A DNA stretch of 63,953 bases, counting the filler, from Stramenopiles sp. TOSAG23-2 (Eukaryota): the NCBI GenBank assembly GCA_900128395.1. It is 3 parts of 3 records of this genome, joined end to end, with 100 filler letters (N's around TTAATTAATTAA, not from the genome) between each part and the next. Parts side by side here need not be neighbours in the genome. Positions count along the whole stretch, not along the records: positions 1 to 21,259 come from LT649539.1; 2 more parts are not named here. One strand, given 5' to 3'. The number at the start of each line of letters is the position of its first letter. Within the stretch, counting starts at the first letter, position 1. Positions 678 to 63,321 of this stretch are shown piece after piece. The notes under the pieces were generated by a model. That model had not been told where the DNA came from. It saw only the letters and a list, made by a program, of their open reading frames with translations, and searched no databases. Both the position numbers and the translations under genes were made by a program.

Positions 678-3600
678 TTAAAACTCTTTATCATCCGTCA
701 CTACATAAGGTGTAAAGCCTGGTTTTAATCTATGTGCATTAAATGTCACTCCACCATGCATTTTAGATTTTACTGTTGGGGCTAGTACACCACTACTAAT
801 CCGTCACTACATAAGGTGTAAAGCCTGGTTTTAATCTATGTGCATTAAATGTCACTCCACCATGCATTTTAGATTTTACTGTTGGGGCTAGTACACCACT
901 ACTACCATGTCTCAACCCTTGATCTCGAGCATGCGATGTAGAATGTGTTAATGATAATGCTTGTCCTACTCGGTTTGCCATTCGATTTAAACTAGGTTCA
1001 AAGCTAGGCCAATGAGCCGATACTGCACCAAGTAATGTTTGTAACCGTCGTTCCAATGATATTTTATTATCAGGATCATATGGATCATTAATTCTAGCAT
1101 GTGGTAATAAAAATGTATGGGACCACATTTGTGTGCTTAATTTCACCAACGTTTTACCAGGTACGCGTGTTGTTTCCGTAGTTGAAAATCCATCTTTTTC
1201 ACGTACATTTTGTACTTGTGTTTTGCCTTGACCAAATATCATACCAACCTCATTATTTGACCACGTAGGGACCAAGGGCATGATTGAATCTGAAAACTCT
1301 CGCTCTGTAATTGCATCATACCCGGAACTTAAATCAGCACTTTTTAATGTTTCACGCAAATTGCGCTTGAATCTACGCTGCGCAGAACGAAATTCCCGCA
1401 AACATAAATATAAAAATCGTTGTGCATCAATCTCACGCTCGCCACTTTGCGTTATAACCATATTGCTGTTAGCATCCCTACCACATGATGCTAATATCCT
1501 TTCCTTGAATTGTATAAATACTGCACGTTCTTTCTTTTTGCGATCTCGTTCCCCTTTCATCAATTGCTCATTCGATACGTATGATTTCGACATAGCGTCA
1601 TTTTCTTGTATATTAGCAAATAACGTATCCACGTCAACCATGGAAGTAAGATCATTTGGTCTATCTGGCTTAGCATTACGTTCCATTTTATGCAATGCGT
1701 GTGCAAGAAATACTGGTTTAAGACCAGCCAATACACGAGTAGCAATTCTTACAGCGACTGAAAGAGGCAATGGTGTTGGCGCTAAATTGTTCTGTGCAGC
1801 CGATGAAGCTTCACCGACTGTGTCTAAGACTAGTGCACGGGTAAACATGTAAAATGATAATTCAGCTGTACCGTAAACTTCATCCATGAAATTTGAAAAA
1901 ATGTCAACTTCAAGACTATATTGTCTATAAAATTGGCAACTACGGTATAAATCCCAACACATCTGTTCAATTAACTGCGGGACCCCGTACCGGACAGAAG
2001 CCCATTCGCATAGGTATTCAGGCAAAGTAGGTGCTTGGAAACCATTTCGAAATGCAGCACATTCAGCCAAGAGTTTATCGTCATAAATACAACGCAAGGT
2101 TTTCATAACCCACGCAATTTGACGAGGCTCGAGACTTTTTTTCGGCTCCGTTGTTGTCATTTCCATCGATTCCATGTTGTTGTCATCTACATCATTCAAT
2201 AAACCAGGTGTAGTTGCACGACTACCACCCCATTCTTTTGGCATACCTAATTGATTTGAAACAGTCTTAGACAAATCATCATGAGTATCCCCCAATCCTT
2301 TTGCTCCATCAGATATCTTAGCAGGAGTTAAACCGGCACGTTTGCGCAATAATTCATGGAACGATCGTTTATTCATTTTATAACGCTCCACACGGTTTGC
2401 CCATCCATCACGTGCATATTTTATTTTATCTCTCCATTCATTTGGATTTGCACCACCAGGTGATGAATATTTAGCCATAGTTGAAGGATAATTTTTGCGT
2501 AAACCTGGCATAGTGGAATCCCAAGATGGTTTCTCCATCCACTTATCCTCCTCACCCATTTCATCGAATAGAATAGATGATCCTGGTGTCATGCCTGGTG
2601 TCCTTGTATTGAATCCTCGAGGATCATGGATTGAGTGCACACTACCAGGTGTATTTGCTAAACGCACAGCATCGCTTGACATATCTGTACCACTGTTTGC
2701 ATCTCCATCAATATTAGCGTCCTTCGAAAAACCACCTTTCATCGCCTTTAATGAGGAGGCAAGGCCACCACCAGACGATGAACCACCACCTTTTGACGCT
2801 TTCATTTTAAATTTACTGGCAAACTTTCTGGTCAAGATGTTTTCTAATTCCTTTACCCTACGCTCGATCATAATGACACGTTTGCGCATTTTAATGGAAC
2901 GTTCCATTTGTGCTTTTTGTGCTTGTCGAGCTTGTTCAGTCATTTTTGCTTCAAGTTTTCGAGTGGCCTCAGCTTCTTTAATTAACTTTTGTTCCCAAGC
3001 GCCTGGATCTGCTTCCTGTGCACGCTTCAAGTTATTTTTATTTTCCATTTTCGATAATTTTGAATCTACGCCCATCATACGCCTCATAGAATCTAATTGT
3101 ATGTCGCCAACGTCTTCATCTTGCGAAGCACCAAATTCTAATAATGCTGCAGTTGCATCTTCCTCCTTTTGTTTTTGGTTTCTAATTTCTTGTACAATCA
3201 GACGACCGTGTCTTGCCCGTGCCATGGCTTGAATTTTCGTCGCTGCAGCATCATGGATTTTTCGTTGTTCAGCTGACAATGAATTAATTTCTTCATTCAT
3301 TTGATCTTTCACTTTGTTAAATTCCTCCAATGCACCGGCATTATTGGCAAGCCAAGCAGCTGTTCCTGGTATGTTCTTATCTAATTGGGATTGTATTTCT
3401 TTTGACACTTTTCCACCACCACCAATTGGACTGATAGGACCACGACCACGGTTGCCTCCGCCGCCACCACCTGCACCAAGGGAAAGTTTTGATGGAGAAT
3501 CGCGTTTTGGTGGTGGCGTTGGCGGTGCTTTAATTGCTATTTTTTCCACGACAAGAGTCATTCCCATAGCATCGCCAAGTTTTGTTGCAAATGACGAAAG

Positions 3601-6600
3601 TTCACCTCCCATACGTTGCAACTTACTACGTGTATCTTTACGCAAGGTATCTAAAAATGTGCGTTCATCTAAAATACGCCCTTGCAAAGTTCTCAACATT
3701 GGCAAAGCAGCATTTGCAGCTGCCTTTGAAACCACAAGTTTTGTTTGCGTGCCTCTGGAACGTGCCGGTTTCATTTTGATTTTTCGTTTGACCTTTTTCT
3801 TTACTTCACGTTTTGTTCCATCAGCATCTATAACAATTTCAGTTATCTCCTCTTCGATTTCAATTTCACGTGGCTTAGATGCTTCCAGCTGTGCTTGTCG
3901 CTCACGTTTTGCAGCAGCTCGTTTTTGTCTTAATCGTTCTTCTTCTTTTTCTTGAATTTCAGCACTTTCCGTATCAAGGAGCTCCACTGCAGCTTGAGTC
4001 GCTGCAACTTCGTCCCAAACTTCTAATTCTTCTTCCATGGCCTCTTGATAGTCATTCCTTACAGCTTGTATGCTGAAATCCTCGCTTTCAATTGAAACAA
4101 TTTCGTCTTCCAATCGATCTACTTCTTGATCTAGCTCTTCGATTTTAGTTTCTTTTGTTTTAAGATTTGTAGATATCTCTTCACTTTTTTTATGTATATT
4201 TTGTAATTTCTCCTCAGCTGCATCCCAAGACGCTTTGCATTCTTCTAACATCGCTTTGACATCTACTAAATGCGTTTCTAAATCCATCTCTTCTTCATCA
4301 GGTTCGTTAAATGAGGGTGGTAATGATTCTCCAGCTTCTAAAATTTGTTTTTTACTTTGTTCCTTGATACTCATTTTCATGTCATATTTTAATTGGGATT
4401 TTCGTACTTCTTCTTGAATTTTTGAAATTCTCATATCCAAATCTTGTTTTTCAATATTAACGTCTTCTTCTCCATTTAAAGTAATTTTTAACTCTTTTCG
4501 TAAATTTATTAAATATAATTCTGATTTTTCCCTTTCCATTCTCATTTCTTCAAGACGATTCAAAGTCTTGTTTAATTCAGGGTTTGTTTCTGCTGCCTTT
4601 TTCCGTGCTTCATCAAGTTTTTTCTCCATCAATTCCACTTTATTTTCTGCAAATAAAGCTTTCGCTTGCTTCGCAGCTAATGCTTTAATAGTATCTGCTC
4701 GATGGGCTTCATGTTGCTCTGGAGAAGTAATATTTTGTTTTTCCTCATCAATTCCTTTTCTACCAGCATTTTTCAACACGGCAGTCGCTTTGTTTCTTAA
4801 ATGACCGACGTCATCAAGATCATGTTTTATGCGTCTCAAGCGCCTTCGCGTTCCACCAAGCTGTTTCAAGGCAGTTATTTCAGTATTCTCAGTAGCATTT
4901 ATTACAGTGCGTATACGTTTCAAATCTGGGTCTTCCTCTTCAATTTTTTTTGATGCATTGATAGTTTCTTCATGTTCTTTTTCAAGTTTACCAACATCTT
5001 CCGTTAATCGATTAAATTCAATATTGATTAATTTCAAATCTTGATTCAATTTTTTCACATCTCCTTCTAATTTTTTACAAATACCTTGATTGTTTGAAAT
5101 AACAACTTTTTGTTCATCTTTTAGTGCAGAATCTGTAATGTCTTCCAATCGAAGTTCTTCCTCTTGGGTCCTAACAATTGCATCTTCAAGTTGTTTTGTT
5201 ACCTCTTCAATTTCTGCTTGTTTCTTTGCCTTTGATTCTTCCACAGCTTTTAATTCATCTCTTCTGGTAGTCAATTCCTCGCTTTCTAAAACTTCCTTTG
5301 CCTTGATAGCTTGTAATTCGGCATGATTTTTTAATGCTTCTTCCAGTTCTTTCCTAGATTTCTCTAGCGTTTCTTCTTTCTTTTTCGTTGCTGCTTCAAA
5401 TTCTAATTGCATCATCATGATTTTATTTTCTAAGACTTCCTTCTCGCGCTTTAATGTATTTTTTGAAAGTTCCACAGCCATTTCAAATTTTTCATCGTTT
5501 TCAGCATCTTCCTCTGTAAACTTCTTATCCAACTTCATTCGCCGTTTTCTTACCCTTTTCTTCGCACGCTTTTTTGACTTCAAATTATTAATTGATCGCC
5601 TGCGACCTATTGGTTTAGTTACTGGACTAGGCTGTGCAGCATCTAGAATGGCATCTGTGAACATTTTAATTTGATTTTTTTGTACCGGGGTTTCATGTAT
5701 ACGGACGGCAAGACTAGCAAATAAACCTTCGAATTCTAAAAGCATGTCAGTAGTGTCCGACATAATGCTATCTTGTTCTTTTTTAATTTTCGTACAATCA
5801 CGTTTCAATGCCAAGACGGCATCTTCAGTTACTTCTATGCGACTGCTATCCTCATCTGCTGTAGATGCATGTTCCATTAAAAATGTCTTTTCTTTTGTTA
5901 ATTGTTCTACTTGGTCCTTATACATTGCATTTGCCTCTCGCAATTCCCCGACGACGGAATCAAATTCTTCATGCAATTCAAAAAGTTCAACCTCTAAACG
6001 ACTTTGCGCCTCCCTGGCATCAAGTACCTGCTGGCCTTGAATTGCAACTTTCTGTTGCTCCAAAGATAAATTACGAATCAATTTATCACGATGTACAATA
6101 ACTTCATTCATTTTTTTCTCAGCCTCTATTGCTTTTGCAGTCATCCTATTAACAACCTCTTGCATTACCGCTGGATCACCACTTAATTTGCTGACCGGAA
6201 TATTGTGTCGAATAGCAACAGAAGCTCTACGAATAGATTCAACTTTTCCCATCATCCCTTGCATCATGTTTTGAAACCCTTTCAAATCTCGAATGTTTCC
6301 CTCCATATTTGCCGTGAATTCTTCTAAATCTTTTACTTTACTATATAGTGCCAGTTCTGTACGGTTAGCATTGTGTAATTTTTTCTTTGCATTTTCTTCT
6401 ATTTCCCTAGCTTTTTTTAGTTGCTCTTCCGCAGCGCGAATTTGTCCAGGATAATCTTGATCATCTACCCATTTTTCATTTTCTTCTGCTTGTGCAACTT
6501 TTGTCAAGGCAACCGTCAATTGTTTCCGCAAATCAATTGATTTTTCCTTTGCCGCTTTTACTTTATGTATGCTTTCATCTTCCCTCGCTCGCAATGTCCC

Positions 6601-8658
6601 TCTAACAGTTTCTAATTCAATCGCTTGGTTATTAGCAGTCAATTGTGATTGTTCCAACGAACGCTTTAAAGAAGCATTTTGACGTCTTAACGCAATAAGT
6701 TCTGCATCTCTTGACGTAACAAGACGTTGTGCATTTTCCGCTTTTTGTAGTAATTCATTTGATGATGCCGTTGGCGGTGATATAGCAATTGTTGCAACTT
6801 CCTCTCTAATCCGTTTTATTTCATCCTTTAAATTATGATTTTCTTCTGTTAATCGTGTCATTTCTTTCTTTTGAGAGGACATAAGGGTATCTTTTGATCC
6901 AACTGCTAATGGAAGTGCATCCCCCACAACATCTTGAAAATGACTTGTAATCATTTCCAATAATGTCCCACGAGTCGTAGTTTGAGCTGCAACTTGTCCA
7001 CTCAATTCATCTACTACAATATTATATACTTGTCTTTCTAATTCTGCACGATCTGGCGTTGTCCACCCTTCCGCTTGGCATGCGTAACGTACATGTTGTA
7101 CAGCACTCGATAGAAATTCAGCGAGTCGTCTTAAATTTTCCTTTCCTCTCCATCCACCTTCACCAACACCTTGTTTTAAATTATGAGTACGTAATAAGTT
7201 TCTTAACCAAAATTGTGCTGCAGATTTAGCAGTGTGAAATGCTGGATTATGTACAACTTCTTCTTCTTCTTCAGTATCTTTAATAATTTCTGGCTTAAGA
7301 ACAGGCTCTGGCAACACGTCAACAGATTGTTTTAAATGTATACCACCTAAACGCATTGTAAAATTTTCCAAACCTTTCGATAATGTCGGCAACGTTCGAT
7401 CATATGGAACATGCGCCGATGCTGCTGCACCATGCGCTGCTTTACTTGGCAACATAAAATTTGATCGCGTCCATTGTACTTCTTTTGGCATATTTCTTAA
7501 TATAAGTTCTTTTCGCGCATTTACTTTATTTAACCTATATTTTCTTTCATTATTATTATTAGTCGTCGTAGTATCCTTATCAATACGCATTGGGCTAAAC
7601 CGTATATTTGTTTGTTTCGGGACTCCTGGTACTAATTTGCTATCATCATTTCGCTTTCTATTACTATTATACATTTCCTTTGTTTCCTCAAATTGAAGTG
7701 GCAATTCACGTTCTACTTTTTGCCTATCTGCACTGAAAGTAAATCGTACATCTGGCATTTCAGAAATTTTATCTGTCGTATCACTTATCTTTAAATTAAC
7801 TTCATGAGGTCTTTTAGTTTTACTACTTGAAGGCTTTCTTTTACTACCGCTTAAAGGTGGCTTTTTTGATATATTCTTATTATAATTATCTTTCGTCTCT
7901 GCATCATTCTTATTACCATTACGTGTTGGTGATAAAAGATGTGGATCTGTATCCCAACCAGATAAATTATTCCCATTTTGAAAACCGGCGAAATCGTTTG
8001 TGTCTTTACCACGAGATTGACCTTTTTCCCTTGGCATTGTTACAGTTCCCATTCCTTTGTTACTATTATTATTATTATTATTATTTCTATTATTTGGTAT
8101 TTTTTTATCAGATACTTTACGTTGTGGTGCATTAGGCACGGGAGATGTGATTTGTTCTAGTAATTGATTTACAGTTTCATTGGTAGTTTTGGCTACACTA
8201 TTTTTCATATGATTGATATTATTTGTTTGTCCTAATTTTAAGCCACTCTTGGTAATCCCTAGATTGTTGCTTCCACCACCCATTAATCCAGAAGAACTTA
8301 ATGGAGTACCAACTCTTTCTATACGTTTTTTTGCTTCATATTTTTTCTTACGACTCCGTCTATTACTACTACTACTGCCTTTTTGTCCACCACCCATACG
8401 TTTGCGAAAAATGGCTTGTGTTAATTTAGTTACATCTATTTCCTCTCTGGAATTTATTGATGGTCTTCCACCCATTGGTCCAGGTTGAGAAAATAAAATA
8501 TCCCCGTTTTTATTAGGTGTACTACGTCGATTTCTTTTATTATTATTTCTACTTCCAGCTTCCCTAGATTTATTATTATTATTTGACATTGGTCTCATTT
8601 TTTCTTTCGGGCTATCTATAGAAGCATAAAGGGTTTCATTTTTTACATTTGTCGACAT
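678..8658 (-). CDS. Giant coiled-coil protein (~2620 aa), probably flagellar, with an axonemal dynein light chain (p28)/TSNAXIP1_N-like segment, one IQ motif and a conserved helical C-terminal domain
   Basis: 7.9-kb intronless ORF. QVYNIVVDELSGQVAAQTTTRGTLLEMI resembles p28 FDELIRQVTINCxERGLLL; IQ motif AATKIQAMARARHGR. The ORF-track stop at 796 comes from the 106-bp duplication 693-798/799-904; collapsing it gives ...PYVVTDDKEF* with TAA at 680-678. Confidence 0.75.
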
Positions 8659-9048
8659 CTTTTATATTTATTTATATATTGAATTAAAATCTTGTTATAC
8701 TTTGGATATATTTGTATTAATTATATATGTTTGTCTCGTGGATATATTTCTCTCTGTGCTATAAATTATATATCCTATATATAATTGTTGTTGTTGTATT
8801 TATTGGTGCAATTGATGAAGCAAGAAAGAAGAAAAATGAAGCAAACCAGCAAACAACGCAAACGGCTTTTTTTCAGAGAGAATTCTCTCTGCTTTTTTGT
8901 AGCTTATACGACCTTAAATTCCTGCAAAGATTCCGATCAATGTCCTTAAAGAATTAAAAAGGCTTGCATAATAAGAAGAAAATGGGAATTTTTTTTTTCT
9001 GCAGAAATTTTTCCAATTTTTTTTCCGTTATTAATATCATCTGTCCAG

Positions 9049-16051: not shown

Positions 16052-16283
16052 TAAGTGGAAGAAATGGTGTGTTTTGATAAAAAGTAAAAGAAAAATAAAA
16101 AAGCGTCATAATTTATATATACTGGTATACCCATTTCTTCATTCCAGGCATTCCATCCACACTATCGATAAACACAAAAAATAATATATATACGTCATAT
16201 ACATATATAATATACCTGGTATGCATACGCAAATATATATTTTATACATATATACCACATAATTTCTTCTTCATATATGAATC

Positions 16284-17762
16284 ATGAGCACAGCAACATA
16301 TTCAAATGTAATTAAAGTTGCTACTGCATCAACAGCAGCAGTGGCAGCAGTGGCAGCTTATTATTATTTTACATGGGATCCACGTTGGTGGTGGAATAGA
16401 AGAAAAAATAAATCTACCGAAGTGAATGTGCAGCAAAACTGGAAAAAAACATTAATTAAAGGATATGTGCACAAAGATTTTGAACCTGTTCGAGAAGAGT
16501 TTATTGCTAATTTTGAGAGACGTGGTGAACTTGGTGCAGCTTGTTGTATTTTCTACAAAGGCGAAATGGTAGTAAATTTATGGGGAGGCTATCGAGAATA
16601 TGGCACAAAGAAGGAGTGGGAAAATAATACAATGTCAAATGTATTTTCTGCAACAAAAGGTATTTCAGCAATTGCAATGGCAATATTATGTTCTCAAGGT
16701 AAAATAAATTTTGATGATAAAGTTTGCAAACATTGGCCACAGTTTGCACAGAATGGAAAAGAAGACATTACTATTCGAGCATTAGTGGATCATGCAACTG
16801 GCTTGGCTGGACCATCTCCACCAATTTCCATGGAAATATTGCGAGATAAAGCAAAAACTATTGAATTTTTAGCTGCAGTAAAACCTGATTGGAAAACATC
16901 CTATGAAAAAAAAGGCTACATGGCAATACTTCTAGGAATTTACGAGTCGTGTATTATGCAAATGACTGATGACAAGAAACGTACGATTGGAGAATTTTTA
17001 CAAGAGGAAATTGCTGAACCGCTTGGACTGGATGGTGACATTTACATTGGGCTACCAGATAGCATAACAGATGAAAGATTAACCGTTTTAGATGCTCCTA
17101 ATCTTTTTCAAATGTTATTTTTACAAGATACGTTACCCAAAGGTTTTATGTCATCGATGTTGTTGAATCCTTCCTCTTATTGCAGCAGGGCATTTTTCAA
17201 CCCTAATCTTGGCAATGATGGTATGTTAGATTATAATCGTCGTGATGTGAAGCGATTAGAATTGGCAGCGTCGAATGGACATGCTTCTGCACATGCATTG
17301 GCAACCATTTACAATGCTGTTGAACGTGCAATTAATACAAAATGTCGTATCAATAAATTAAACTTAAGTAATGCAGCATTACTTGAAATTCAACAAGGTG
17401 GAAAACCACAATATGATGAAGTTTTAAAAGTGGAAACAAATATGGCTGGCGGATTCGAAAAACCTGGTTCTTCATCGGAATATGGATGCGATCAACGGGC
17501 ATTTGGTACTCCAGGTGCTGGTGGACAGAATGCATTTGCAGATGTTGAAAGTGAAATGAGCTTTGCATATATCATGAATCGATGCGGTACATACATTTGT
17601 GATGACCCTCGAGAATTTTCTTGTAGAGTGAAAGCATATCAATGCATACAAAAGATACGTGAGAGAAATGGGGAGAAGAAATTACCAATGAAAAAATTAG
17701 AAACAATGAGTACATTTTTAAAAAGTGCAACGGATCAATTTCCAGAATTGCGAATGTTGTGA
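16284..17762 (+). CDS. Beta-lactamase-family serine hydrolase (family VIII esterase-like) with N-terminal membrane anchor
   Basis: SxxK motif FSATKG; WPQFAQNGKEDITIRALVDHATGL; GY motif; AFGTPGAGGQNAFAD; hydrophobic N-terminus. Confidence 0.92.
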   Translation: MSTATYSNVIKVATASTAAVAAVAAYYYFTWDPRWWWNRRKNKSTEVNVQQNWKKTLIKGYVHKDFEPVREEFIANFERRGELGAACCIFYKGEMVVNLWGGYREYGTKKEWENNTMSNVFSATKGISAIAMAILCSQGKINFDDKVCKHWPQFAQNGKEDITIRALVDHATGLAGPSPPISMEILRDKAKTIEFLAAVKPDWKTSYEKKGYMAILLGIYESCIMQMTDDKKRTIGEFLQEEIAEPLGLDGDIYIGLPDSITDERLTVLDAPNLFQMLFLQDTLPKGFMSSMLLNPSSYCSRAFFNPNLGNDGMLDYNRRDVKRLELAASNGHASAHALATIYNAVERAINTKCRINKLNLSNAALLEIQQGGKPQYDEVLKVETNMAGGFEKPGSSSEYGCDQRAFGTPGAGGQNAFADVESEMSFAYIMNRCGTYICDDPREFSCRVKAYQCIQKIRERNGEKKLPMKKLETMSTFLKSATDQFPELRML

Positions 17763-18041: not shown

Positions 18042-19583
18042 CTATTCAAACATTTTCTTCACACGATCGGCTGCATCGCCAAAAAAACTATTTCCATCAG
18101 AACGCCCAGTACTTCCATCAATTGTTTCCCTACCATTATTATTATCGCTATCACCATCATCATCGCCACCACTTCTCCTTGCAATAATTTGTCCATTTTC
18201 TTCTTCTTCCTTTCTAAATTCTTCCAACAATTCTTTTTGTCGGTCTGATAATTTTTGTGGTACAACAACATTAAAATGTACATATTGATGACCACGACGT
18301 CCACCACCATTTAATACTGGTACCCCACGATTACGTAACACTACACGATCACCTGGTTGCGTACCAATTGGTACTTTTAAATCAACTTCACCTTTTAATG
18401 TTGGTAAAGTGATTTTATCACCTAAACTTGCTTGTGATAATGAAATTGGTATTTCCACATGTACATCACTATCATCTCGTTGAAAGAACGGATCTTCCTT
18501 TACAACTACTTCAACATATAAATCACCAGCAGGGCCACTTCGTAAACCATCATCACCTTGTCCACCAACACGTAAATTAATGCCTGTATCAACACCTGGT
18601 GGTATTTTCACATCAACTGTTTTTGTCTCCGGTATACGACCTTGACCACTACATGATGGACATGGATCTTTAATCACTGAACCTGTACCTCTACATGCAT
18701 TACATGTAGTTTGCATATACATAAAACCACGTTTTACCATTTTCACACCTGTGCCTTGACATTCAGTACATGTGGTAGGTCCTGTGCCAGATTTAGCGCC
18801 TGTACCACCACATGGATCGCATTTTTTCATACGACGTATATTCATTTCCCTAGAACAACCTTTCACCGCTTCCATAAAATCTAATGTCACCCGTCCTTGT
18901 AAATCACCACCACGTTGTGGTGCATTTGGATTTTGACGTCTTCCACCACCACCAAATGGACCACCGCCTCCAAATATATCATTTAAATTGCTAAATATAT
19001 CTTCAGGATTTACATTACCTTGAAAGCCACCACCACCACCAAATGGATTGCCACCACCGCCGCCGCCGCCGCCAAATGGATTGCCACCATGTCCAAACGA
19101 ATCATACGCTTGTCTTTTTTCTGCATCACTTAATGTATCATATGCATCTTGTAACTCTGCAAATTTTTCAGTTGCTCCTTCATCTTTATTTACATCTGGG
19201 TGTAACGTTTTTGCTAATTTATAATATGCCTTTTTAATATCAGATTGCGATGCAGATTTCGATACACCAAGAACATCGTAATGATCACGTTTTGAACTTG
19301 GTGTTGTTGTATGTATGAAATGATGTGATGATAAGTTTTTATTGAATAATAAATTTTTATTATTATAATTGTTATATTTTGGTGAATAATTTGTTGTTGA
19401 ATTTTTTGTTATTACATGTTGTTTCGTTCGTTTATTGTTGTTATTGTTATTATTATGTATCATATTATTATTTGATGTAAATATTGTACGATGTACAATC
19501 ATCCAATTGTTATTATTATTATTTTTTGGATGATGTTGACGTCGTATTAATTTTTGTACAATATTACTATATGTAGGCCTCAT
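18042..19583 (-). CDS. dnaJ: Type I DnaJ/Hsp40 chaperone, probably mitochondrial (Mdj1/DNAJA3-like)
   Basis: J domain with HPD, G/F-rich linker, four CxxCxGxG repeats, DnaJ C-terminal domain; basic, acid-free presequence from ATG 19583 (MRPTYSNIVQKLIRR). Confidence 0.95.
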   Translation of the reverse strand: MRPTYSNIVQKLIRRQHHPKNNNNNNWMIVHRTIFTSNNNMIHNNNNNNNKRTKQHVITKNSTTNYSPKYNNYNNKNLLFNKNLSSHHFIHTTTPSSKRDHYDVLGVSKSASQSDIKKAYYKLAKTLHPDVNKDEGATEKFAELQDAYDTLSDAEKRQAYDSFGHGGNPFGGGGGGGGNPFGGGGGFQGNVNPEDIFSNLNDIFGGGGPFGGGGRRQNPNAPQRGGDLQGRVTLDFMEAVKGCSREMNIRRMKKCDPCGGTGAKSGTGPTTCTECQGTGVKMVKRGFMYMQTTCNACRGTGSVIKDPCPSCSGQGRIPETKTVDVKIPPGVDTGINLRVGGQGDDGLRSGPAGDLYVEVVVKEDPFFQRDDSDVHVEIPISLSQASLGDKITLPTLKGEVDLKVPIGTQPGDRVVLRNRGVPVLNGGGRRGHQYVHFNVVVPQKLSDRQKELLEEFRKEEEENGQIIARRSGGDDDGDSDNNNGRETIDGSTGRSDGNSFFGDAADRVKKMFE

Positions 19584-19901
19584 TTTTGTCTTTTTTATCG
19601 TTTGAATTATTATTATTATTTCAATGAGTAGTCTTGTTGTCAATAATTTAGTATCAATGTTCAATAGAAATTAGTATTAAATGACAATAGCTGTATCAGT
19701 TGATAATCTATATGATAATTGTTTGAATATATAGATGTATGTATGTATGTATGTGTTTAATTACTTACACATACACAAGAAAAGAATAATATAAATATTT
19801 TTATTTAATGAATATTTGTGGTTAGTTTGTGTTTTGTGCTTTTATTATTCTTCGTGCACTCGTCGTCGATATTCGAACAATAGCATAGATATAGCATTGT
19901 A

Positions 19902-19980: not shown

Positions 19981-20148
19981 TATGAAAAAAACAAAATGAA
20001 TTTTATACAGGTCTCTGATCATGAGTTGTAAGAACAACAGGTAGTTAATAAAAAAAAAAAAAGCTGTCATCATCGCGAACAAAACCAGGAAACGGATACC
20101 TGGTATGATACCAAGTATCATGTAATATTATATGAATTATTTGCGAAA

Positions 20149-21259
20149 CTAGCATGTGACGTCATGCGAAACGCTATTAAATCGCGACTTTGTTCGATAT
20201 GAGCGACATTGTGCAGTCCAAGAGTTTTTAGTGCAATGCCTGCAAGCGCTATCGCTACATCCATAAAAGCTAAAGCTACCCCCCCCATTACAAGAGACGC
20301 CTCTTACGTAACCTCTACTACTCCAAGGGTTCTTACGGCAACCAGAAAAGATCGGGTACTTTTTTATATGGGATTCTATTGCGCGACCACTACAAGTACG
20401 ACCATTATAATATTTAGTTATCATAACCGCTTGTCGACCAACACCATACGCTCTTCTCCCGCCTCTGAATCTCGGACTACTCACATCTAGATGTGGAGCT
20501 GGGTTGTATCCACCGCCACCACCTAAATTTGGCCCATCGCCTAAATGCGGAGCTGGATTATATCCACCACCATCACCTAAATTAGGCCCATAATTTTCAT
20601 CCCAGTTGTATTCAGCCCCTGCTTTGTATGGTCCTTTCTCATATTCACCGTACACACGACCACCACCAACATGAGCTTCTTTCTCGTCCCATTTATTCGA
20701 TTGCATCTGACGATGATGATGCATATGCTGATTGTGCCTGTGGGCAGCATTTTCATCCCAGTTGTATTCAGCCCCTGCTTTGTATGGTCCTTTCTCATAT
20801 TCACCGTACACACGACCACCACCAACATGAGCTTCTTTCTCGTCCCATTTATTCGATTGCATCTGACGATGATGATGCATATGCTGATTGTGCCTGTGGG
20901 CAGCATTTTCATCCCAGTTGTATTCACCACCTGCTTTGACTGGTCCTTTGTTGTATTCGCCGTAAACTTTACCACCACCAACATTTTCTTCCATGACGTC
21001 GAAACTTCCACCACATGCTTTCTTTGCATCGTTCATCCATCTTCTGTCACCACCTGCTTTGACTGGTCCTTTGTTGTATTCGCCGTAAACTTTACCACCA
21101 CCTACATTCGATTCTTCCTCGTCCATAAACTTGTTAATCAACTTTTTAGCCCCCCATTTTATAATACGTGTTTGAGGAGAGCCAACATTTTCATCATTGG
21201 CATCTTCATCCCAGTTGTATTCACCACCTGCTTTGACTGGTCCTTTGTTGTATTCGCCG
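20149..21259 (-). CDS. 5'-truncated repeat polyprotein / multi-peptide precursor with a C-terminal 8-Cys cationic domain
   Basis: Frame is open from the gap edge (21259) to TAG at 20149; repeated GG(K/R)VYGEY(N/E)KGP(V/Y)KAG(G/A)EYNW units separated by acidic DE...(N/H)VG spacers. Confidence 0.85.
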
Positions 21260-21359
21260 NNNNNNNNNNNNNNNNNNNNNNNNNNNNNNNNNNNNNNNNN
21301 NNNTTAATTAATTAANNNNNNNNNNNNNNNNNNNNNNNNNNNNNNNNNNNNNNNNNNNN
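21260..21359. other. Artificial scaffold spacer (44N + TTAATTAATTAA + 44N)
   Basis: Exactly 100 bp with a six-frame stop linker at 21304-21315; identical to 42617-42716. Confidence 0.97.
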
Positions 21360-42616: not shown

Positions 42617-42716
42617 NNNNNNNNNNNNNNNNNNNNNNNNNNNNNNNNNNNNNNNNNNNNTTAATTAATTAANNNNNNNNNNNNNNNNNNNNNNNNNNNN
42701 NNNNNNNNNNNNNNNN
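42617..42716. other. Artificial scaffold spacer (44N + TTAATTAATTAA + 44N)
   Basis: Exactly 100 bp; linker at 42661-42672. Confidence 0.97.
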
Positions 42717-49852: not shown

Positions 49853-50276
49853 TGTAATTATTTTGTTCTTTTGATTTTCACAACCAATACGTTTGAATTA
49901 CTCTACCTCTTTAATCTATTTTTTTTCCCTTTTCTAAAATCTAGATATTGTTACATATATATATCTATATATATCTACTACGCACACACAGTGCAAAAAT
50001 AATAAGTCGTGATTTATGTATTGGTGTCGTAAAGTGATAGACAGAATAATTACTGTAGCATGGAATAGCAGGCGCATTGCAAAAAAAAAGGCTTTTACAC
50101 AAACAACAACTTGCAAAACACACACAATCGAGTCAGCAAGTCACACAGCAAAATTCATAATAATAAAAATACATTTTAATTTAATGGAAAAGAGTAGCTA
50201 AGAACTCTGGAAAAGAAATTTTTATAATCAAATCATTTATCCCTTGAGTGTGGGAAATATATATATAGAGAGAGAT

Positions 50277-51587
50277 ATGATGCGGATGTACAATAATACA
50301 TCGTGGAGGAAATCATTTCAATTTATTTATTTATTTATATTATTTATTACAACATGTAATAGTATTATCAATGAAAATAATAATAATAAATATTATAATG
50401 TAGTAGATTTTGGTGCAAAGGGAGATGGAAAAACCTTTGATACAATTGCTATACAAAGAGCCGTACGTGCAGTAGCCCATGAAGGATCAGGGACGATTAT
50501 TTTTCCAAAGAATAAAATATTTTTAACTGGTCCTTTTAATTTGACTTCGTTTTGTACCCTTTTTATTGAAGAAAACACAACAATATTAGGTTCCTTTAAT
50601 AAAGCGGATTATATGCGTATACCTGCACTCCCATCATATGGTCAAGGGAAACATGGCGGTCCAACACGACGAATTTCGTTAATCCATGGAGAAAATTTAA
50701 CAAATGTTATTATTACAGGGAAAAATGGAACGATTGATGGGAATGGCGCTGTATGGTGGGATCATAAAGAAAAAAATGATACTGCACCTCATTTAATTGA
50801 ATTTATGTATAGTTTTAACATTGAGGTATCACATGTCACACTGATAAATACACCTTTTTGGACAGTTCATCCATATATATGTAAAGGATTTCTTGCGCAT
50901 CACGTATGGATTATCAATCCATCAAATGTCACAAATACAGATGGAATTGATCCTGATTCGACACAGGATGTATTGATTCATAATGTATATATTAACACAG
51001 GCGATGATGGGATAGCTATTAAATCTGGTTGGGATGAATATGGATACGATGTCGTCAATATTTCAAGCCGGAATATTACCATTCGTGATTCTACAATTAC
51101 TACACCTTGCGCTGCAATTAGTGTTGGATCGGAAATGAGTGGGGGTGTAGCTGATGTATATATTTCTAATACATATTTGTACGATACAACTGCTGGTGTA
51201 CACATTAAATCTGGACGTGGTCGTGGTGGTTATGTACATAATATCTTCATGGAAAAATTAACAATGAATAACTGTTTCTATGGAATTATGGTTGATACCG
51301 ATAGTGATAAGACACCTGATAATACTCCAGGGCATCATTTTAATTTAAGTGCGATTCCAGATATAAGAAATATATCGGCTCGTAATATAAATGGTAAAAA
51401 AAGCAAAGTTGTTGCAAAATTAATTGGTTTAAAAGAAGATCCAATGCGGGATATCAAATTAGAAAATATACATTTTAATGACGATGCAATATATGAATGT
51501 GGTAATGTTTCTGGTACATATACCAATACATTTCCAAAACCGTGTGATTTATTAATACCGGAGGAGATATATGTGAGGGGGGTGTAG
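50277..51587 (+). CDS. Glycoside hydrolase family 28 (polygalacturonase, exo-type-like), secreted
   Basis: YNVVDFGAKGDG, NTDGIDPDS, GDDGIAIKSG, SVGSEMSGG, HIKSGRGRGG; N-terminal hydrophobic segment. Confidence 0.95.
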   Translation: MMRMYNNTSWRKSFQFIYLFILFITTCNSIINENNNNKYYNVVDFGAKGDGKTFDTIAIQRAVRAVAHEGSGTIIFPKNKIFLTGPFNLTSFCTLFIEENTTILGSFNKADYMRIPALPSYGQGKHGGPTRRISLIHGENLTNVIITGKNGTIDGNGAVWWDHKEKNDTAPHLIEFMYSFNIEVSHVTLINTPFWTVHPYICKGFLAHHVWIINPSNVTNTDGIDPDSTQDVLIHNVYINTGDDGIAIKSGWDEYGYDVVNISSRNITIRDSTITTPCAAISVGSEMSGGVADVYISNTYLYDTTAGVHIKSGRGRGGYVHNIFMEKLTMNNCFYGIMVDTDSDKTPDNTPGHHFNLSAIPDIRNISARNINGKKSKVVAKLIGLKEDPMRDIKLENIHFNDDAIYECGNVSGTYTNTFPKPCDLLIPEEIYVRGV

Positions 51588-51778: not shown

Positions 51779-53893
51779 CTACACATATACAATACTGGTT
51801 GCCATCCCATGCTTAATATGCTCAATCATATGACAATGAAATAACCATTGACCTGGATTATTCGTTTGAAAACATATGGTAGCACTATGGCATCTTGGAG
51901 GAATTTGTATCGTATCTCTAACAGGGCCATCTTCAAGTATTTCTCCGTCTAATTCTACCACTTGAAAACTATGTCCATGTAAATGCATTGGGTGCCCCGT
52001 ATGCCCATTATTTTGCATTTTTATACAATACTTCTTATTTTCATATACGACAATTGGTTTTGGATTCATAACAACCATGCCATCTTTTTCAAATTTTGCC
52101 AAGTCCCATAATACATGATTCATACTAAATACATGCAACCATCCACTGGTCAAATTCATTGGTATAATTTCTTCAACTTCATCTGGTCTGTAAGATATTT
52201 TAGGAACATCATCATATTTTGCTTTTAATTTTTTTTCCAAATCATAATATATTAATGGAGATTTCTTATCAGCTAATTCGGATGGAATTTGAAAATTATT
52301 TTCTTCATTTTTTGCATTATTATTATCAGCTGCTGCTGCTGCGGACGACGACGGCGACGATTGTTTCTTTGCTTTTAATATAATACCAGTTCGATTTCGC
52401 TCACCTTGCCATTGTGCTAAGATAGGATGATATGAATACTTGGGTGATTTCTCATCATTACTAGATAATGGAATTGTAAATTTTATATCCATTCGTTGAC
52501 CTGAACAGATAGGAAATTTTTTTTCCGTCACTCCACTTTGAACATTAATACCATCGACACTTTGTACTTCTGCATCTATATTATTTGGCATGTAAATCCA
52601 AAAACATACTGAGCCTGCAGAATTAATAATTCTCAGTACAATTTCATCACCTTCAGCAACATTGATTATTTGTGGATCTTTCAATGTTTTTCCATTTGCT
52701 AATAATCGATCATATGATCCCCATAACGTCCCAAATCTAGCATGAAGCCAATCCAACGATGGTAACTGATTTGCTTTTTCATCATAACGACACATATTAA
52801 ACGCTTCATCTTCCGTATTTGATAGATCCGCATTTGTTACTGACGGGCATTGTTTACAGTTATTGCTTTTCATTTTATTACATAACGATTGCGAGCACAT
52901 GACACCTTTTCTTGGCTTTCCATTACAGGAACATTGTAAATATTCATATCTACCAAGAAAAACGGGGCATATACATGGATTAGATTCATCAAAATCATTT
53001 TGAACAAATTTATATGGTATATCTTTCGTATCAATCGGTATTTTATTTGGACAAAAATCGGCATTTCCAGACGCACATTCCGGATGTCTTGACATTCCAT
53101 CTTCTAAAAATAATAGCAAATCACGTTTTTTATTATTAGTAGCATCATTATATTTGATTTCTTCCTCTACATCTTCACCATCAATAGCAAGGAAAAAAGC
53201 TCCTAAACGTTGTTGATGTTGCCATTTAAAATGCGAATGCATAAAAAATGTACCTGGATGTTCAATATCGAAATCATAGTTTGCCATCCCACCATTTTTA
53301 TCAATTGCTTGTCCAGTTAAACCAGGTACACCATCTTGTTCAAATGGTACGACAATTCCATGCCAATGTAGCATGGTTGGTTCATTTAATAAATTTTCCA
53401 CTTTAAGACTAACATGTTTCCCTTTCTTTAAACGTACAACAATGCCTTCAATACCTTGTCGTTCTTCCCAACACATATTTTTTGTACATGGGATAGCATT
53501 AGGCTTTAACCTGATACCAAGTTCAATATTATATTTATCGTTAATATCAATAAACGGACGTTTATATATTTGTAAATGCAAACGATTGGTATCTGAAAAA
53601 TCTCCAGGTGACATACCACTTTGTATTATTATATATATAATATAAAATGTTCCAACTATTAATCCACAACCAAATAGATGATAAACAAGACTGGATGCAT
53701 TGTTAAATACATTTTTCTTATTATTATTATTATTATTTTCGTCTCCAAAATAATATTCATTATTATCGTTTAATTGCCGATATTGTGTGGAATTACTACT
53801 TAATGGTATGGACAATGTATTATTATTCACACCACTCTTATTAGTCATTTCCATCATTTTATTGTTGTTGTTGTTGTTGTTGTTAAGCATCAT
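51779..53893 (-). CDS. Three-domain multicopper oxidase with N-terminal TM anchor
   Basis: Copper motifs HWHG, MHSH, HPMHLHGH and HCHMIEHIKHGM (axial Met). Confidence 0.95.
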   Translation of the reverse strand: MMLNNNNNNNNKMMEMTNKSGVNNNTLSIPLSSNSTQYRQLNDNNEYYFGDENNNNNNKKNVFNNASSLVYHLFGCGLIVGTFYIIYIIIQSGMSPGDFSDTNRLHLQIYKRPFIDINDKYNIELGIRLKPNAIPCTKNMCWEERQGIEGIVVRLKKGKHVSLKVENLLNEPTMLHWHGIVVPFEQDGVPGLTGQAIDKNGGMANYDFDIEHPGTFFMHSHFKWQHQQRLGAFFLAIDGEDVEEEIKYNDATNNKKRDLLLFLEDGMSRHPECASGNADFCPNKIPIDTKDIPYKFVQNDFDESNPCICPVFLGRYEYLQCSCNGKPRKGVMCSQSLCNKMKSNNCKQCPSVTNADLSNTEDEAFNMCRYDEKANQLPSLDWLHARFGTLWGSYDRLLANGKTLKDPQIINVAEGDEIVLRIINSAGSVCFWIYMPNNIDAEVQSVDGINVQSGVTEKKFPICSGQRMDIKFTIPLSSNDEKSPKYSYHPILAQWQGERNRTGIILKAKKQSSPSSSAAAAADNNNAKNEENNFQIPSELADKKSPLIYYDLEKKLKAKYDDVPKISYRPDEVEEIIPMNLTSGWLHVFSMNHVLWDLAKFEKDGMVVMNPKPIVVYENKKYCIKMQNNGHTGHPMHLHGHSFQVVELDGEILEDGPVRDTIQIPPRCHSATICFQTNNPGQWLFHCHMIEHIKHGMATSIVYV

Positions 53894-54770
53894 TCTCTTT
53901 TTCTTTTACGATTGGTTTTGTTGTGTTAAAACATTTACTAAAACATTTCCTTTTTTTTGTCTATATTTCTGTATATATTAAATTTTGATATTGTATCCAT
54001 CATTCAGTTTTTAGTTTGTACTCCTTTAGGCACGCGATTATTTTTATAATTAATAATATTGATTGTATTGCACTACCTGGTATTCATGTATTCATTTTTT
54101 ACAGAATGAAATATAATACTACCGATAGGTACCTGGTACCTAGTATTATGATTTAAATTATCATGGATATTTATCTTCTTCAAACCATTTCATTAATTAT
54201 ATTACAGGTGAATACGATTAGTGCATTACATCCTTATAGATCATTTTTGTATTTTTGGTCATTTGGTCATTTATAGTCTCTTTACATAGGTAAATAAATA
54301 TGTATGGATTTAAGTATTGTAATATCGATACTTTAACTTGCTTTAAAACTTTCTCACTTTTTACGATTTTGATGAGATTTTGATATAGGTACATTGGGTA
54401 TGTTAAGTATAATAAGGTACATATACTAGATACTAGATACTTAACTTGAAATTTTGAAATTTATAGGTAAATTTTAATATTTAAGTATAGCAAATATACT
54501 GTACTAAAATGCACAAATATTATCACAGCAATTGCTCTCTGGCTCTCTTGCGCAAAACTTGCCATGTCTCGTCTAACCACAACAGGCAAAAAAGGCTAAA
54601 AACACATTTCACAAATTAAAAATGGAATCATTTCACTTCCTTCTCACCACAACTCCGGTTCATAGACGACTATTTCATAATATAAAAGAGTGGAATCGTA
54701 TGTTCCAGTGTGGTATGTAAAAGGTGGTAGCTGCTATAATTATAATATTGTTTGTGGGGGAAAAAAAAAA

Positions 54771-57008: not shown

Positions 57009-59039
57009 ATGGATACCAAGACTATTGAAATCATAGAGAATCCACAGCATAGTATACAATCTGACAGCGACATCGATCACGAACCTATCCTCGCGAATGC
57101 AAACAGTATGCGCAAGCGAGCACTGTCAGTAAATAGCAAAGAAATTGCACGTGCTGTATTGAATAACTTATCGTGTAAACATATTGGTTGGATCGGTTTT
57201 GCGGCGCTGTTTACAATGCTCTTGGTCAGTGCGGGTCAGTTCGTTATCTTTTTTGTTTACGCAAACAATACCAACAGCAGTAATTTTCAAAAAATCGGAA
57301 GGCCTATGGTATGGATATTTCTTTTATTTTCTATCCTATATTTCCTACGGTTTATGCATATCACAATTACTTGGAAGGACACCCTGAAAGAATCCATTGA
57401 AGCGAAATACGTTCTCGGTACCCCTGAAACCACAACAGACGTAACATTCGTATCCAGAATGAAAGCGAGATACAAAAAGATGACCGCCTACTACGACGAT
57501 AATTTTGATATCAATGGGAAATAGTATCTCTGGATATTGTATGTAGGAGAACTCATGGAGAGTTGGGTTCAGTTCACGAATATCCTTCAAGTCTATTCTT
57601 GTACGTTGCCTGTCGGATGGAATCTAGTGTTTATGTTGATCTTGATTTTTGAATCGTTGAATCGGTGCAAGGTCTTCTACAGAAAAGTGTGCAGCGAGAT
57701 GCCTGACATTAACTTCAACGAACGCAATGTTCAACTGATTCTGGACATTGGAATGGATCTATTCTTCTTGTTTGTACCATTAGCCATCCTGTGGTTTGGT
57801 TTTCGAATTCCAATGTCGATTTCAGAAATCATACGAATTATTATTGTTCCATCCATATCTCTGTTCTCAAAATTACCAACGATTATCGAGCAAGTGGTGT
57901 ACAATCGCGTGAACGAAGATATTGCAGCACAACAGATGAATGTATCAAAATTGGTGAAACGTAAACGCAAATCATTATTTGGGCAATCCGTAAATGAGCA
58001 CGTTGTAGACCTGCAAAATAGATACTTTCCGCGTGCCGCAAAGATGGCGATGTTTTTCTTGAGCATAATCTATAGCATCGTACTGTTGGTACTGATGATC
58101 GGACAATTGGCGAACCTATCGTTAATAGATACATGTGAAAATATGTTTAATGATACGGATGTTTGGAATAATGGATGTGAAATAAAGATACCGTTTTGTA
58201 AGCGGCCATTTTCACCAAAATGCAATTGTGCTTACTTACATATTGAAAATGATTATACGCTGACATTGCCACAGAAAATGACCACGGATATGGATGGACT
58301 GAGGAAAGTTTACGTAAAAAATAGCAACTTGACATCCTTACCAAACAGTATGGAGAATTTAATAGAAATGAGAGATTTTGAAATAGCATTTACTAAGTTA
58401 GAAGCTTTTAATGTTGATGTTAGTAAATGGGAAAACGTTGTTAGGTTATTTTTAATATATAATAATATAAGCCATTACAATGAGGAAGCAATATGGACGC
58501 ATCAAACTCTAGTTAGCCTCGATTTTAGAGACAACGTTGGCTTGAAAATGCCAGGTGCTGATGCTAAAATTTCGATGCCTTCGTTACAATATTTAAATAT
58601 TATGAATAATAGTGTTTCTAGTTACACGATTTTCAACAGTGATCAATTTCCTAGCCTACTTTTATTGTATTTAGATGGTAATGACTTAGTAACGTTTCCA
58701 GACAAATCGATGAAAAAAACATTACGTGAATTAGGCATTGCACGATGTAACTTATTGTCACTCCCGACTTATTTACAAGAGTTTGATAAACTTAAGTATT
58801 TAGACGTACGCTATAACAATATTTCACATGTCGATAGTGGATTGATATCATTAATTAAAAACAAGGACATGGAAACTTATTTTGTTGGAAATGAAATAGC
58901 ATGTCATAAGCACAAAAATTTAGATTGTGAACCATTATGTAGTATATATTGTTCAAGTAGGAATGCGCCAAAAAATAATTATTGTGATACAGAATGTAAT
59001 TCCAAAGAATGTGATTATGATGGCGGTGATTGTAGCTGA
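57009..59039 (+). pseudogene. Multi-TM + LRR + C-terminal Notch/LNR protein interrupted by one in-frame TAG (57522-57524)
   Basis: ORFs 57009-57524 and 57537-59039 share a frame (FDINGK*YLWILYVGE); about 7 TM segments, LxxLxLxxN repeats, LNR-like NNYCDTECNSKECDYDGGDC. Confidence 0.8.
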
Positions 59040-63037: not shown

Positions 63038-63321
63038 TATTATCCACACACAATAAATACAATACAAACAAACTTTCGAAACCAATGTTCTATGTATTCG
63101 TTTCAAACTACTAACTATAGCTACAACGAATGCAACTACGATACCTGTCTCCAATCTCCAAGAAACAGTAAAAAATAATGTCAACGAAAAATGCCAACAA
63201 TTACAAACAATTACGTAGAACCTCCCAAAGCTATGCGTGTCTGATACCGTGTTCTATGTTCACGATAAAAGTATTCGTGTGTTTGGTTACTTCTACGTGT
63301 ACGTGTGTTTTTGCTTTACGT

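Follow-up and report, generated by a model that had tools for sequence, protein, structure and literature searches.

A 63,953-nucleotide stretch of DNA from Stramenopiles sp. TOSAG23-2 (assembly GCA_900128395.1), referred to here as the window, carries on its minus strand at positions 20149-21259 the 3' portion of a gene that lacks introns and belongs to an uncultured marine protist. The encoded protein is a chain of short units separated by acidic spacers and belongs to an undescribed, lineage-restricted family of secretory "beads-on-a-string" proteins. The best available explanation, to which we assign a probability of about one half, is that these proteins are precursors from which a cocktail of several products would be released. 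Such a precursor had been proposed in a first-pass annotation of the window, and the proposal has to be corrected in three respects: the unit found most often is a conserved module of neutral charge, one supposed core contains the relic of the tail of a lysozyme-like domain, and an entire lysozyme-like enzyme and folded domains are among the cargo of the family. The explanation builds on the gene and its family, the regular grammar of the spacers, the signal-peptide-like starts of the relatives, the presence of the gene in RNA libraries and footprints of shuffling; cleavage, a compartment and an antibacterial activity are what it would add.

Open reading frame and spacer grammar

On the minus strand, an uninterrupted frame of 369 codons extends from the stop codon at 20149-20151 to a run of N that begins at position 21260. 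Translation of 20152-21258 yields the 369 residues of the visible window protein (P0001) and agrees with the reading quoted in the first-pass annotation. It contains five units of the pattern GG[KR]VYGEY.KGP.KAG.EYNW (one cut by the end of the sequence piece, one truncated), the acidic spacers DEDANDENVG, DEEESNVG, DVMEENVG and, twice, DEKEAHVG, two His-rich 20-mers and one 19-mer with a net charge of +5. The five acidic x-VG spacers compare with 0.39 ± 0.60 in 2000 shuffles (maximum 3) and the seven occurrences of [WFM]DE with 0.08 (maximum 2), which bears out the reported alternation of acidic spacers and cores. Pairs of K and R are absent from the spacer boundaries; a single RR (residues 268-269) lies five residues ahead of the GVG that precedes the Cys-rich C-terminal domain.

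The same grammar was counted in 97 family proteins, a redundant set whose counts therefore overstate independence. Acidic x-[VI]G spacers occur 259 times, against 25.4 ± 4.5 in shuffles, and in 164 distinct contexts. In 141 of these contexts the spacer is preceded by an aromatic or hydrophobic residue (W 63, F 54, Y 10, M 9 and L 5); in the window protein, cores had been observed to end at W or M directly before DE. G follows the V-G in 100 contexts, and the commonest spacer length is eight residues (85 contexts). Between the spacers stand 84 distinct internal cores, 34 of them variants of the module. The other 50 range from 10-residue peptides up to domains of about 300 residues and include 18- to 19-mers with a net charge of +5 as well as Pro-rich, His-rich and Cys-rich units. 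At the level of the family, these numbers agree with the prediction that spacers are conserved while cores vary. When the non-module cores were grouped by eye into 27 unrelated families, 21 of these had W, F, M, L or Y as their last residue, against a background of 0.178 (P 1.8e-11), and 16 had W or F (background 0.056). The end rule is therefore not a by-product of the module, and no other feature of the sequence argues as strongly for boundaries that are recognized by some factor.

KR pairs are not enriched across the family (101 versus 102.7 in shuffles), consistent with the claim that dibasic sites are missing from the core boundaries. Two other routes of processing were considered and rejected: an asparaginyl endopeptidase that cuts at N-V-G, since N or D stands at that site in merely 107 of the 164 contexts, and a stepwise trimming of the spacer by dipeptides, since the odd lengths 5, 7 and 9 are common (18, 13 and 15 of 164).

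Units of the window protein

All units lie on the minus strand and are described from the visible N-terminal end. Module copy 1, GEYNKGPVKAGGEYNW (residues 1-16; 21211-21258), is cut by the end of the piece, and its DNA equals the matching part of copy 3. It is followed by the spacer DEDANDENVG (residues 17-26; 21181-21210), which occurs identically in the identical slot of the relatives P0002 and P0063 and of the metagenome locus L001. The cationic 19-mer SPQTRIIKWGAKKLINKFM (21124-21180; net charge +5, isoelectric point 11.3) has core variants in the corresponding slot of P0002/P0063 and of P0006. Its helical hydrophobic moment of 0.40 is reached by 13.8% of shuffles, so that the peptide is only modestly amphipathic. 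The spacer DEEESNVG (residues 46-53; 21100-21123) leads to module copy 2 (residues 54-70; 21049-21099), which ends early after ...KAGG and continues in frame into DRRWMNDAKKACGGSF (residues 71-86; 21001-21048). The latter is a relic of the C-terminal tail of a lysozyme-like domain, as the same tail follows this domain in P0002, P0063 and P0064. What had been listed as one core is hence a truncated module fused to this relic.

The spacer DVMEENVG (residues 87-94; 20977-21000) separates the relic from the K-type module copy 3, GGKVYGEYNKGPVKAGGEYNW (20914-20976). The next segment, 20845-20913, consists of DEN and the His-rich 20-mer AAHRHNQHMHHHRQMQSNKW, with six His in 23 residues, and has relatives in the corresponding slot of P0002, P0063 and P0015. 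The spacer DEKEAHVG (20821-20844) and the R-type module copy 4, GGRVYGEYEKGPYKAGAEYNW (20758-20820), complete a 156-base-pair unit. A second such unit of His-rich peptide, spacer and module copy 5 occupies 20602-20757 and differs from 20758-20913 at 0 of 156 bases. Residues 220-274 (20437-20601) comprise DEN, Gly/Pro-rich repeats (YNPAPHLGDGPNLGGGGG twice), which also occur in P0003, P0051 and P0064, and the basic stretch PRFRGGRRAYGVG; this part finishes in RRAYGVG. It is followed by the C-terminal cationic domain of 95 residues with eight Cys (residues 275-369; 20152-20436), and residues 220-369 together carry a net charge of +12 with these eight Cys. The stop codon is TAG, and the 3' untranslated stretch at 20013-20148 is covered by contigs of RNA runs.

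The units that resemble effector cargo are limited to the 19-mer, the two His-rich peptides and the Cys domain. The designation of the cores as similar to antimicrobial peptides may apply to these and fails for the commonest core, the module. P0001 matched no Pfam family, SLT_3 included. For the Cys domain, searches of Pfam and PDB gave no lead, nor did the Protein Atlas (best score 0.79). The sole relatives found for this domain and the Gly/Pro repeats form the P0003 cluster (72% identity in the Cys domain), in which repeats and Cys domain stand behind a different signal peptide and a different Cys-rich domain.

The run of N beside the frame belongs to a joint of the form N44-TTAATTAATTAA-N44 (21260-21359). 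An identical joint recurs at 42617-42716, and the window is composed of three pieces of about 21.25 kb. This recurrence identifies the supposed gap as a joint between pieces and not as a scaffold gap that could be closed locally. The gene thus runs off its piece, and the sequence on the far side need not be its genomic neighbour. The N-terminus had rightly been placed outside the visible sequence; the gap in which it was thought to be lost is artificial.

Family members and full-length relatives

A search with P0001 among 5.8 billion proteins yielded 5438 candidates, 47 of them at an expectation value (E) <= 0.01. All 47 matches are environmental and mostly marine, derived from metagenome or metatranscriptome sources or from two NCBI records. 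A profile of three window modules matched 47 of 1.84 billion representatives, 25 of them at E <= 1e-10; so few matches indicate that the module is confined to a narrow lineage. One match, the Gly-rich P0068 of 2445 residues, was judged spurious, which leaves about 46 clusters. The full-text literature, supplementary files aside, held no description of the module motif, and nothing relevant on acidic-spacer antimicrobial polyproteins in protists was found in the literature as judged on titles and abstract openings.

Three longer members were found, P0063 and P0064 among them, and the full-length relatives are P0063 (675 residues), P0064 (662 residues) and P0002. They begin with a hydrophobic, signal-peptide-like start, followed by ...AERL, an SLT_3 lysozyme-like domain and a tail ...RRWMNDAKKACGGSFDVMEENVG. 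Next come a module, DEDANDENVG, a variant of the 19-mer, DEEESNVG, a second module and a His-rich peptide, which are the beads of the window protein; the C-terminal cargo differs from that of the window. SLT_3 was present in 12 of the 47 search matches according to precomputed annotation, and the SLT_3 model (PF18896), whose cut-off is 27 bits, matches P0002, P0054 and P0063 with 83-87 bits (E 1e-23 to 1e-24). With this domain in the relatives, a link to bacterial killing is plausible. A signal-peptide-like N-terminus was recognized by a simple hydrophobicity rule in 47 of 96 relatives. These starts are of ten or more unrelated types, and the relatives that fail the rule mostly resemble fragments when judged by eye.

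The tripeptide RRL occurs 85 times in the relatives, against 5.0 in shuffles (about 17-fold), often after the signal peptide. Moreover, 34 of the 97 proteins terminate in R-[LI], mostly in [FW]RL, with about 19 distinct tails. In diatoms, RXL after the signal peptide and at the ends of repeats is reported to be the cleavage motif of an unknown endopeptidase (PMC5525289, PMC4557024). The usage of RRL is only a hint at a diatom-like processing.

Two further architectures were observed in the family. A conserved domain that spans about 300 residues and is largely helical, which has no Pfam family, contains a hydrophobic stretch rich in Gly, Ala and Ser and finishes in ...SPFRL, is a frequent C-terminal cargo (P0063 at about residues 390-650; P0004, P0019, P0026, P0039, P0059 and P0064) and forms the N-terminus of P0038. 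In P0024 and P0041, modules and spacers of the DENIG type stand ahead of a predicted transmembrane stretch and a short tail, so the module also occurs in membrane-anchored proteins.

The conserved module

The commonest core of the family is a 21-residue module with the consensus GG[KR]VYGEYNKGPxKxGxExx[WF] and a net charge of 0 to +1. Each protein contains 0 to 5 modules, and their position is freely variable. A comparison of nine R-type copies, drawn from five sources, showed seven codons with synonymous variation only and three in which the encoded residue varies. Between the two main clades of the family, 16 of the 21 module residues are shared, compared with 92 of 119 in the lysozyme-like region.

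Structure predictions by AlphaFold2 were uninformative, both for P0001 alone (mean predicted local distance difference test score, pLDDT, 33.5) and for P0063 with an alignment of 26 rows (pLDDT 34.4, with about 55-67 in the lysozyme-like domain). A search of PDB by sequence gave nothing usable. The module is probably a beta-hairpin with a function of its own; it may possibly serve as a released peptide, as a handle for a protease or receptor, as a binding unit or as a membrane hairpin.

Duplication, shuffling and the junction at 21047

Tandem Repeats Finder reported a 156-base-pair unit in 2.5 copies (20593-20984) and a 54-base-pair unit in 1.9 copies (20487-20591). The two full 156-base-pair units are identical, module copies 1-3 are identical in DNA across their shared parts, and part of the regularity of the protein is a young DNA duplication. 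At 21047 the window fuses the truncated module to the lysozyme tail. Contigs of the DNA run X1 and of the RNA run X3 depart from the window at this position and, read by hand, continue upstream with ...PWATYNDGLH, with which the lysozyme-like domain closes. A version in which the domain leads into its tail must therefore be present in the same organism too, either further upstream in this gene or in a paralogue. Comparable breakpoints within modules and precise losses of domains were seen in P0015, P0023, P0028 and P0048. Alternative splicing was rejected as the origin of the shuffled forms, since the joints are present in DNA as well (run X1) and the frame of the metagenome locus L002 is uninterrupted.

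L001 and L002 are intronless full-length genes whose gene neighbours are unlike those of the window, and L002 is a single open frame of 662 codons. In L001, a shift of one base at about 5942-5944 splits the lysozyme-like domain over two frames and is either a sequencing error or a real frameshift; the frame of L002 is intact. Tandem gene clusters were rejected, as no second family member was present in the 6-kb flanks of L001 and L002 or elsewhere in the window. Over 184 aligned codons, the window and L001 differ by 8 synonymous and 32 residue changes. The pattern of this single pair suggests diversifying change or a conversion between module types.

Presence in public DNA and RNA libraries

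The stretch or a part of it was present in 20 public runs from 11 studies, seven of them recorded as RNA, and every run with an uncoded label was marine, seawater or aquatic. The contigs of four runs were aligned to the stretch. Those of two metatranscriptome runs span the unique 3' part at 20013-20524 with 0-1 other letters: record 16 of X3 covers 20013-20189 and record 24 of X6 covers 20093-20524 (432 letters, 1 difference), and record 17 of X3 lacks 9 letters at 20195. An oligo-dT run of a separate study covers 20183-20440 with 7 other letters. A contig of the DNA run X1 extends to 19770, and its greater length compared with the RNA contigs is a weak hint at a transcript end near 20013-20093. 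RNA libraries may contain DNA, so these contigs indicate presence in such libraries and are no proof of transcription. Contigs of RNA libraries were found for the unique 3' part, and none of the contigs shown bridges 21047.

Processed precursor or intact protein

The full-length chain consists of a probable signal peptide, often followed by a short stretch that ends in R-L and an SLT_3 domain, and then of cargo units. Each unit closes with an aromatic or hydrophobic residue, after which a D-E-acidic spacer runs to x-V/I-G, and the module is the commonest bead. As a precursor of several products, the chain would enter a secretory or digestive pathway. There an unknown non-kexin protease would cut where cargo and spacer meet, behind the aromatic residue, behind V-G or at both sites, and the released mixture would act on ingested bacteria. 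Before cutting, acidic spacers and neutral modules may keep the cationic cargo harmless and soluble. The near-identical DNA of the modules could serve as a recombination handle that shuffles cargo between genes. In its most far-reaching form, the proposal describes a cut-and-shuffle arsenal for the killing of prey, with a new non-kexin code, combinatorial cocktails that each come out of one intronless gene, the module as recombination handle and maybe as the most abundant product, and [WF]-R-L and RRL as a second layer for sorting or cleavage; we regard this extended version as unlikely.

Several observations weigh against the precursor. Cleavage at the spacers we infer from sequence patterns, and the compartment and the antibacterial activity are putative. 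The residue ahead of V-G is variable (N in 94 of 164 contexts), and the spacer boundary matches no known protease specificity. The N-terminus and signal peptide of the window protein itself lie beyond the end of the piece, and no RxL occurs in its 369 visible residues, so that this motif bears on the family and not on the segment. Between the window and L001, the spacers changed at 6 of 42 codons; a contrast of conserved spacers and hypervariable cores is not shown by that pair. For 21000-21259, the bead order is supported by the assembly and by the equal order in L001 and P0063, the aligned contigs break at repeats, and none of them covers 21104-21155. Finally, conservation of the module is roughly equal to that of the enzyme domain, so that it probably has its own function instead of being a mere spacer. 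Its hydrophobic moment is of the strand type (0.37-0.40 at 170 degrees, reached by 1.1-1.3% of shuffles) and not helical. Tandem modules match the Pfam family Porin_4 below its cut-off of 27 bits (P0013 22.0 bits, E 1.7e-4; P0014 15.9 bits), with scores that repeats and composition may inflate; such matches fit a folded beta structure that need not be cut.

These properties lead to a different view of the family, as unprocessed multi-domain secreted proteins in which the modules would be amphipathic beta-hairpins that bind the prey envelope or insert in membranes, and the acidic stretches loops or linkers. The strand-type periodicity, the Porin_4 matches and the purifying constraint on module residues all agree with it, as does a weak match of P0001 residues 196-240 to the designed transmembrane beta-barrel 6x9z_A (E 0.51). 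In bacterial and phage lysins, wall-binding repeats accompany an enzyme domain, and the module, which adjoins the lysozyme-like domain, may by analogy play a similar part. However, no cell-wall-binding repeat of Pfam (CW_binding_1) was matched by P0001 at E <= 10 or by P0013, P0014 and P0054 at E <= 1, and the Porin_4 scores stay under the cut-off. The linker model does not predict an aromatic residue before the spacer in 21 of 27 non-module cores, beads of 10-13 residues and a relic fragment stand between spacers, and the modules vary freely in count and position. We consider an uncut protein possible, if somewhat improbable. A sorting or packaging device for a digestive vacuole or a dense secretory granule appears clearly less probable. 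Such a device would be made up of module, spacer and the [WF]-R-L tails at the C-terminus of relatives and would act by, for example, receptor binding or condensation driven by acid and calcium, with cutting secondary or absent. That one module and a few C-terminal tails are joined to many unrelated cargo domains, that 34 of the 97 proteins end in R-[LI] and that acidic stretches adjoin cationic cargo would suit such a device. Yet the window protein terminates in its Cys domain and has no R-L tail, and a sorting tag is usually required once per protein and not up to five times; the idea also overlaps with the precursor and does not exclude it.

The bead order of the window could also be a chimera of paralogues that arose during assembly or amplification, at the 21047 junction and in the exact 156-base-pair duplication. 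The short contigs break at every module, those shown leave the junction unbridged and 21104-21155 uncovered, X1 DNA and X3 RNA contigs carry the lysozyme-to-tail version instead, and modules 1-3 and the 156-base-pair units are identical in DNA. Against this origin, on our reading no more than a single base is common to both sides of the junction, which makes a repeat-driven misjoin unlikely. The order of module, DEDANDENVG, 19-mer, DEEESNVG, module and His-rich peptide occurs independently in L001, P0002 and P0063, the Gly/Pro repeats stand together with the Cys domain in P0003 and P0051, and the frame is open across all junctions. A chimera is accordingly very improbable, and the multi-product precursor is the reading that we retain.

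Comparison with known polyproteins

Prepromagainin, apidaecin and the Impatiens Ib-AMP precursors have a signal peptide, multiple peptide units and acidic spacers, with cationic cargo beside anionic pro-pieces, and are cut at dibasic sites and/or trimmed by a dipeptidyl aminopeptidase. The family described here resembles these animal and plant polyproteins in the probable signal peptide (of the relatives), the units between acidic spacers and the cationic cargo next to anionic pieces. It differs from them in that KR is not enriched and the boundaries are aromatic-D-E and x-V-G, that a whole enzyme domain and folded Cys-rich domains are part of the cargo, and that the commonest unit is a neutral conserved module and no antimicrobial peptide.

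Candida albicans makes candidalysin from the precursor Ece1p, which like Rep1 of Ustilago is a secreted polyprotein, and the likeness lies in one membrane-active peptide embedded among non-toxic ones. KR stands between the units of Ece1p, and the cuts are made by Kex2p and Kex1p, a processing that was shown experimentally (PMC12153327). These proteins have no sequence similarity to the window family and no enzyme cargo, and processing of the window family is by comparison a proposal. The diatom silaffins, silacidins, cingulins and Sin1 carry an RXL pattern which the R-L or RRL after the signal peptide, the internal RRL and the C-terminal R-L of the relatives resemble. RxL is absent from the visible window protein, and the cargo is lysozyme- or peptide-like and not related to silica; neither an acidic x-VG spacer nor a 21-residue module is described there for the diatom precursors (PMC4557024, PMC5525289).

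Among protists, the saposin-like naegleriapore B and Apl of Dictyostelium are made as precursors that give several antibacterial polypeptides, to which the spacers and module of the window family are unrelated (PMC11542183). No saposin B domain was found in P0001 (Pfam, E <= 10) or in P0003 and eight other members (E <= 0.01). Compared with proteins of the SLT_3 family (PF18896), the full-length relatives carry the domain itself, and the window keeps merely the 16-residue tail that follows it. In the window family SLT_3 is one of many interchangeable beads.

Other genes of the window

The window has a G+C content of 27-42%, and its long open frames reach 2621 codons without interruption. No match came from scans of the window for Rfam families and tRNA genes. 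The downstream neighbour of the gene, at 18042-19670 on the minus strand, encodes a complete DnaJ-type chaperone, in which the DnaJ, CXXCXGXG and C-terminal domains are all present and which contains low-complexity inserts rich in Asn and in Gly; its nearest Atlas cluster is a mitochondrial DnaJ. A frame of 1368 residues at 59147-63253 (minus strand) contains Cys-rich repeats of the Ephrin_rec_like or TNFR-like type and no module. Over segments, it is 34-48% identical to the N-terminal 630 residues of the family member P0065, which at its C-terminal end has four modules and a Cys-rich domain. The 2621-codon frame at 796-8661 (minus strand) matched no Pfam family at E <= 1e-5. Further frames encode a beta-lactamase-family protein (16281-17762, plus strand), an enzyme of glycoside hydrolase family 28 (50202-51587, plus strand), a multicopper oxidase (51779-53905, minus strand) and a leucine-rich repeat protein with a Notch LNR domain at its end (57525-59039, plus strand).

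Possible significance for marine bacterivory

Small uncultured marine predators control the numbers of bacteria in the sea, and the molecular means by which they kill and digest their prey are largely unknown. If the proteins of this family are processed precursors, they would represent a new processing signal and a new source of peptide and protein antibacterials, an arsenal diversified by the shuffling of beads between intronless genes. The module together with its spacer is a compact sequence tag for finding further cargo in metagenomes and metatranscriptomes. Even if the proteins are not cut, the family presents an undescribed conserved unit of 21 residues whose partners are a lysozyme-like enzyme and numerous domains rich in Cys.

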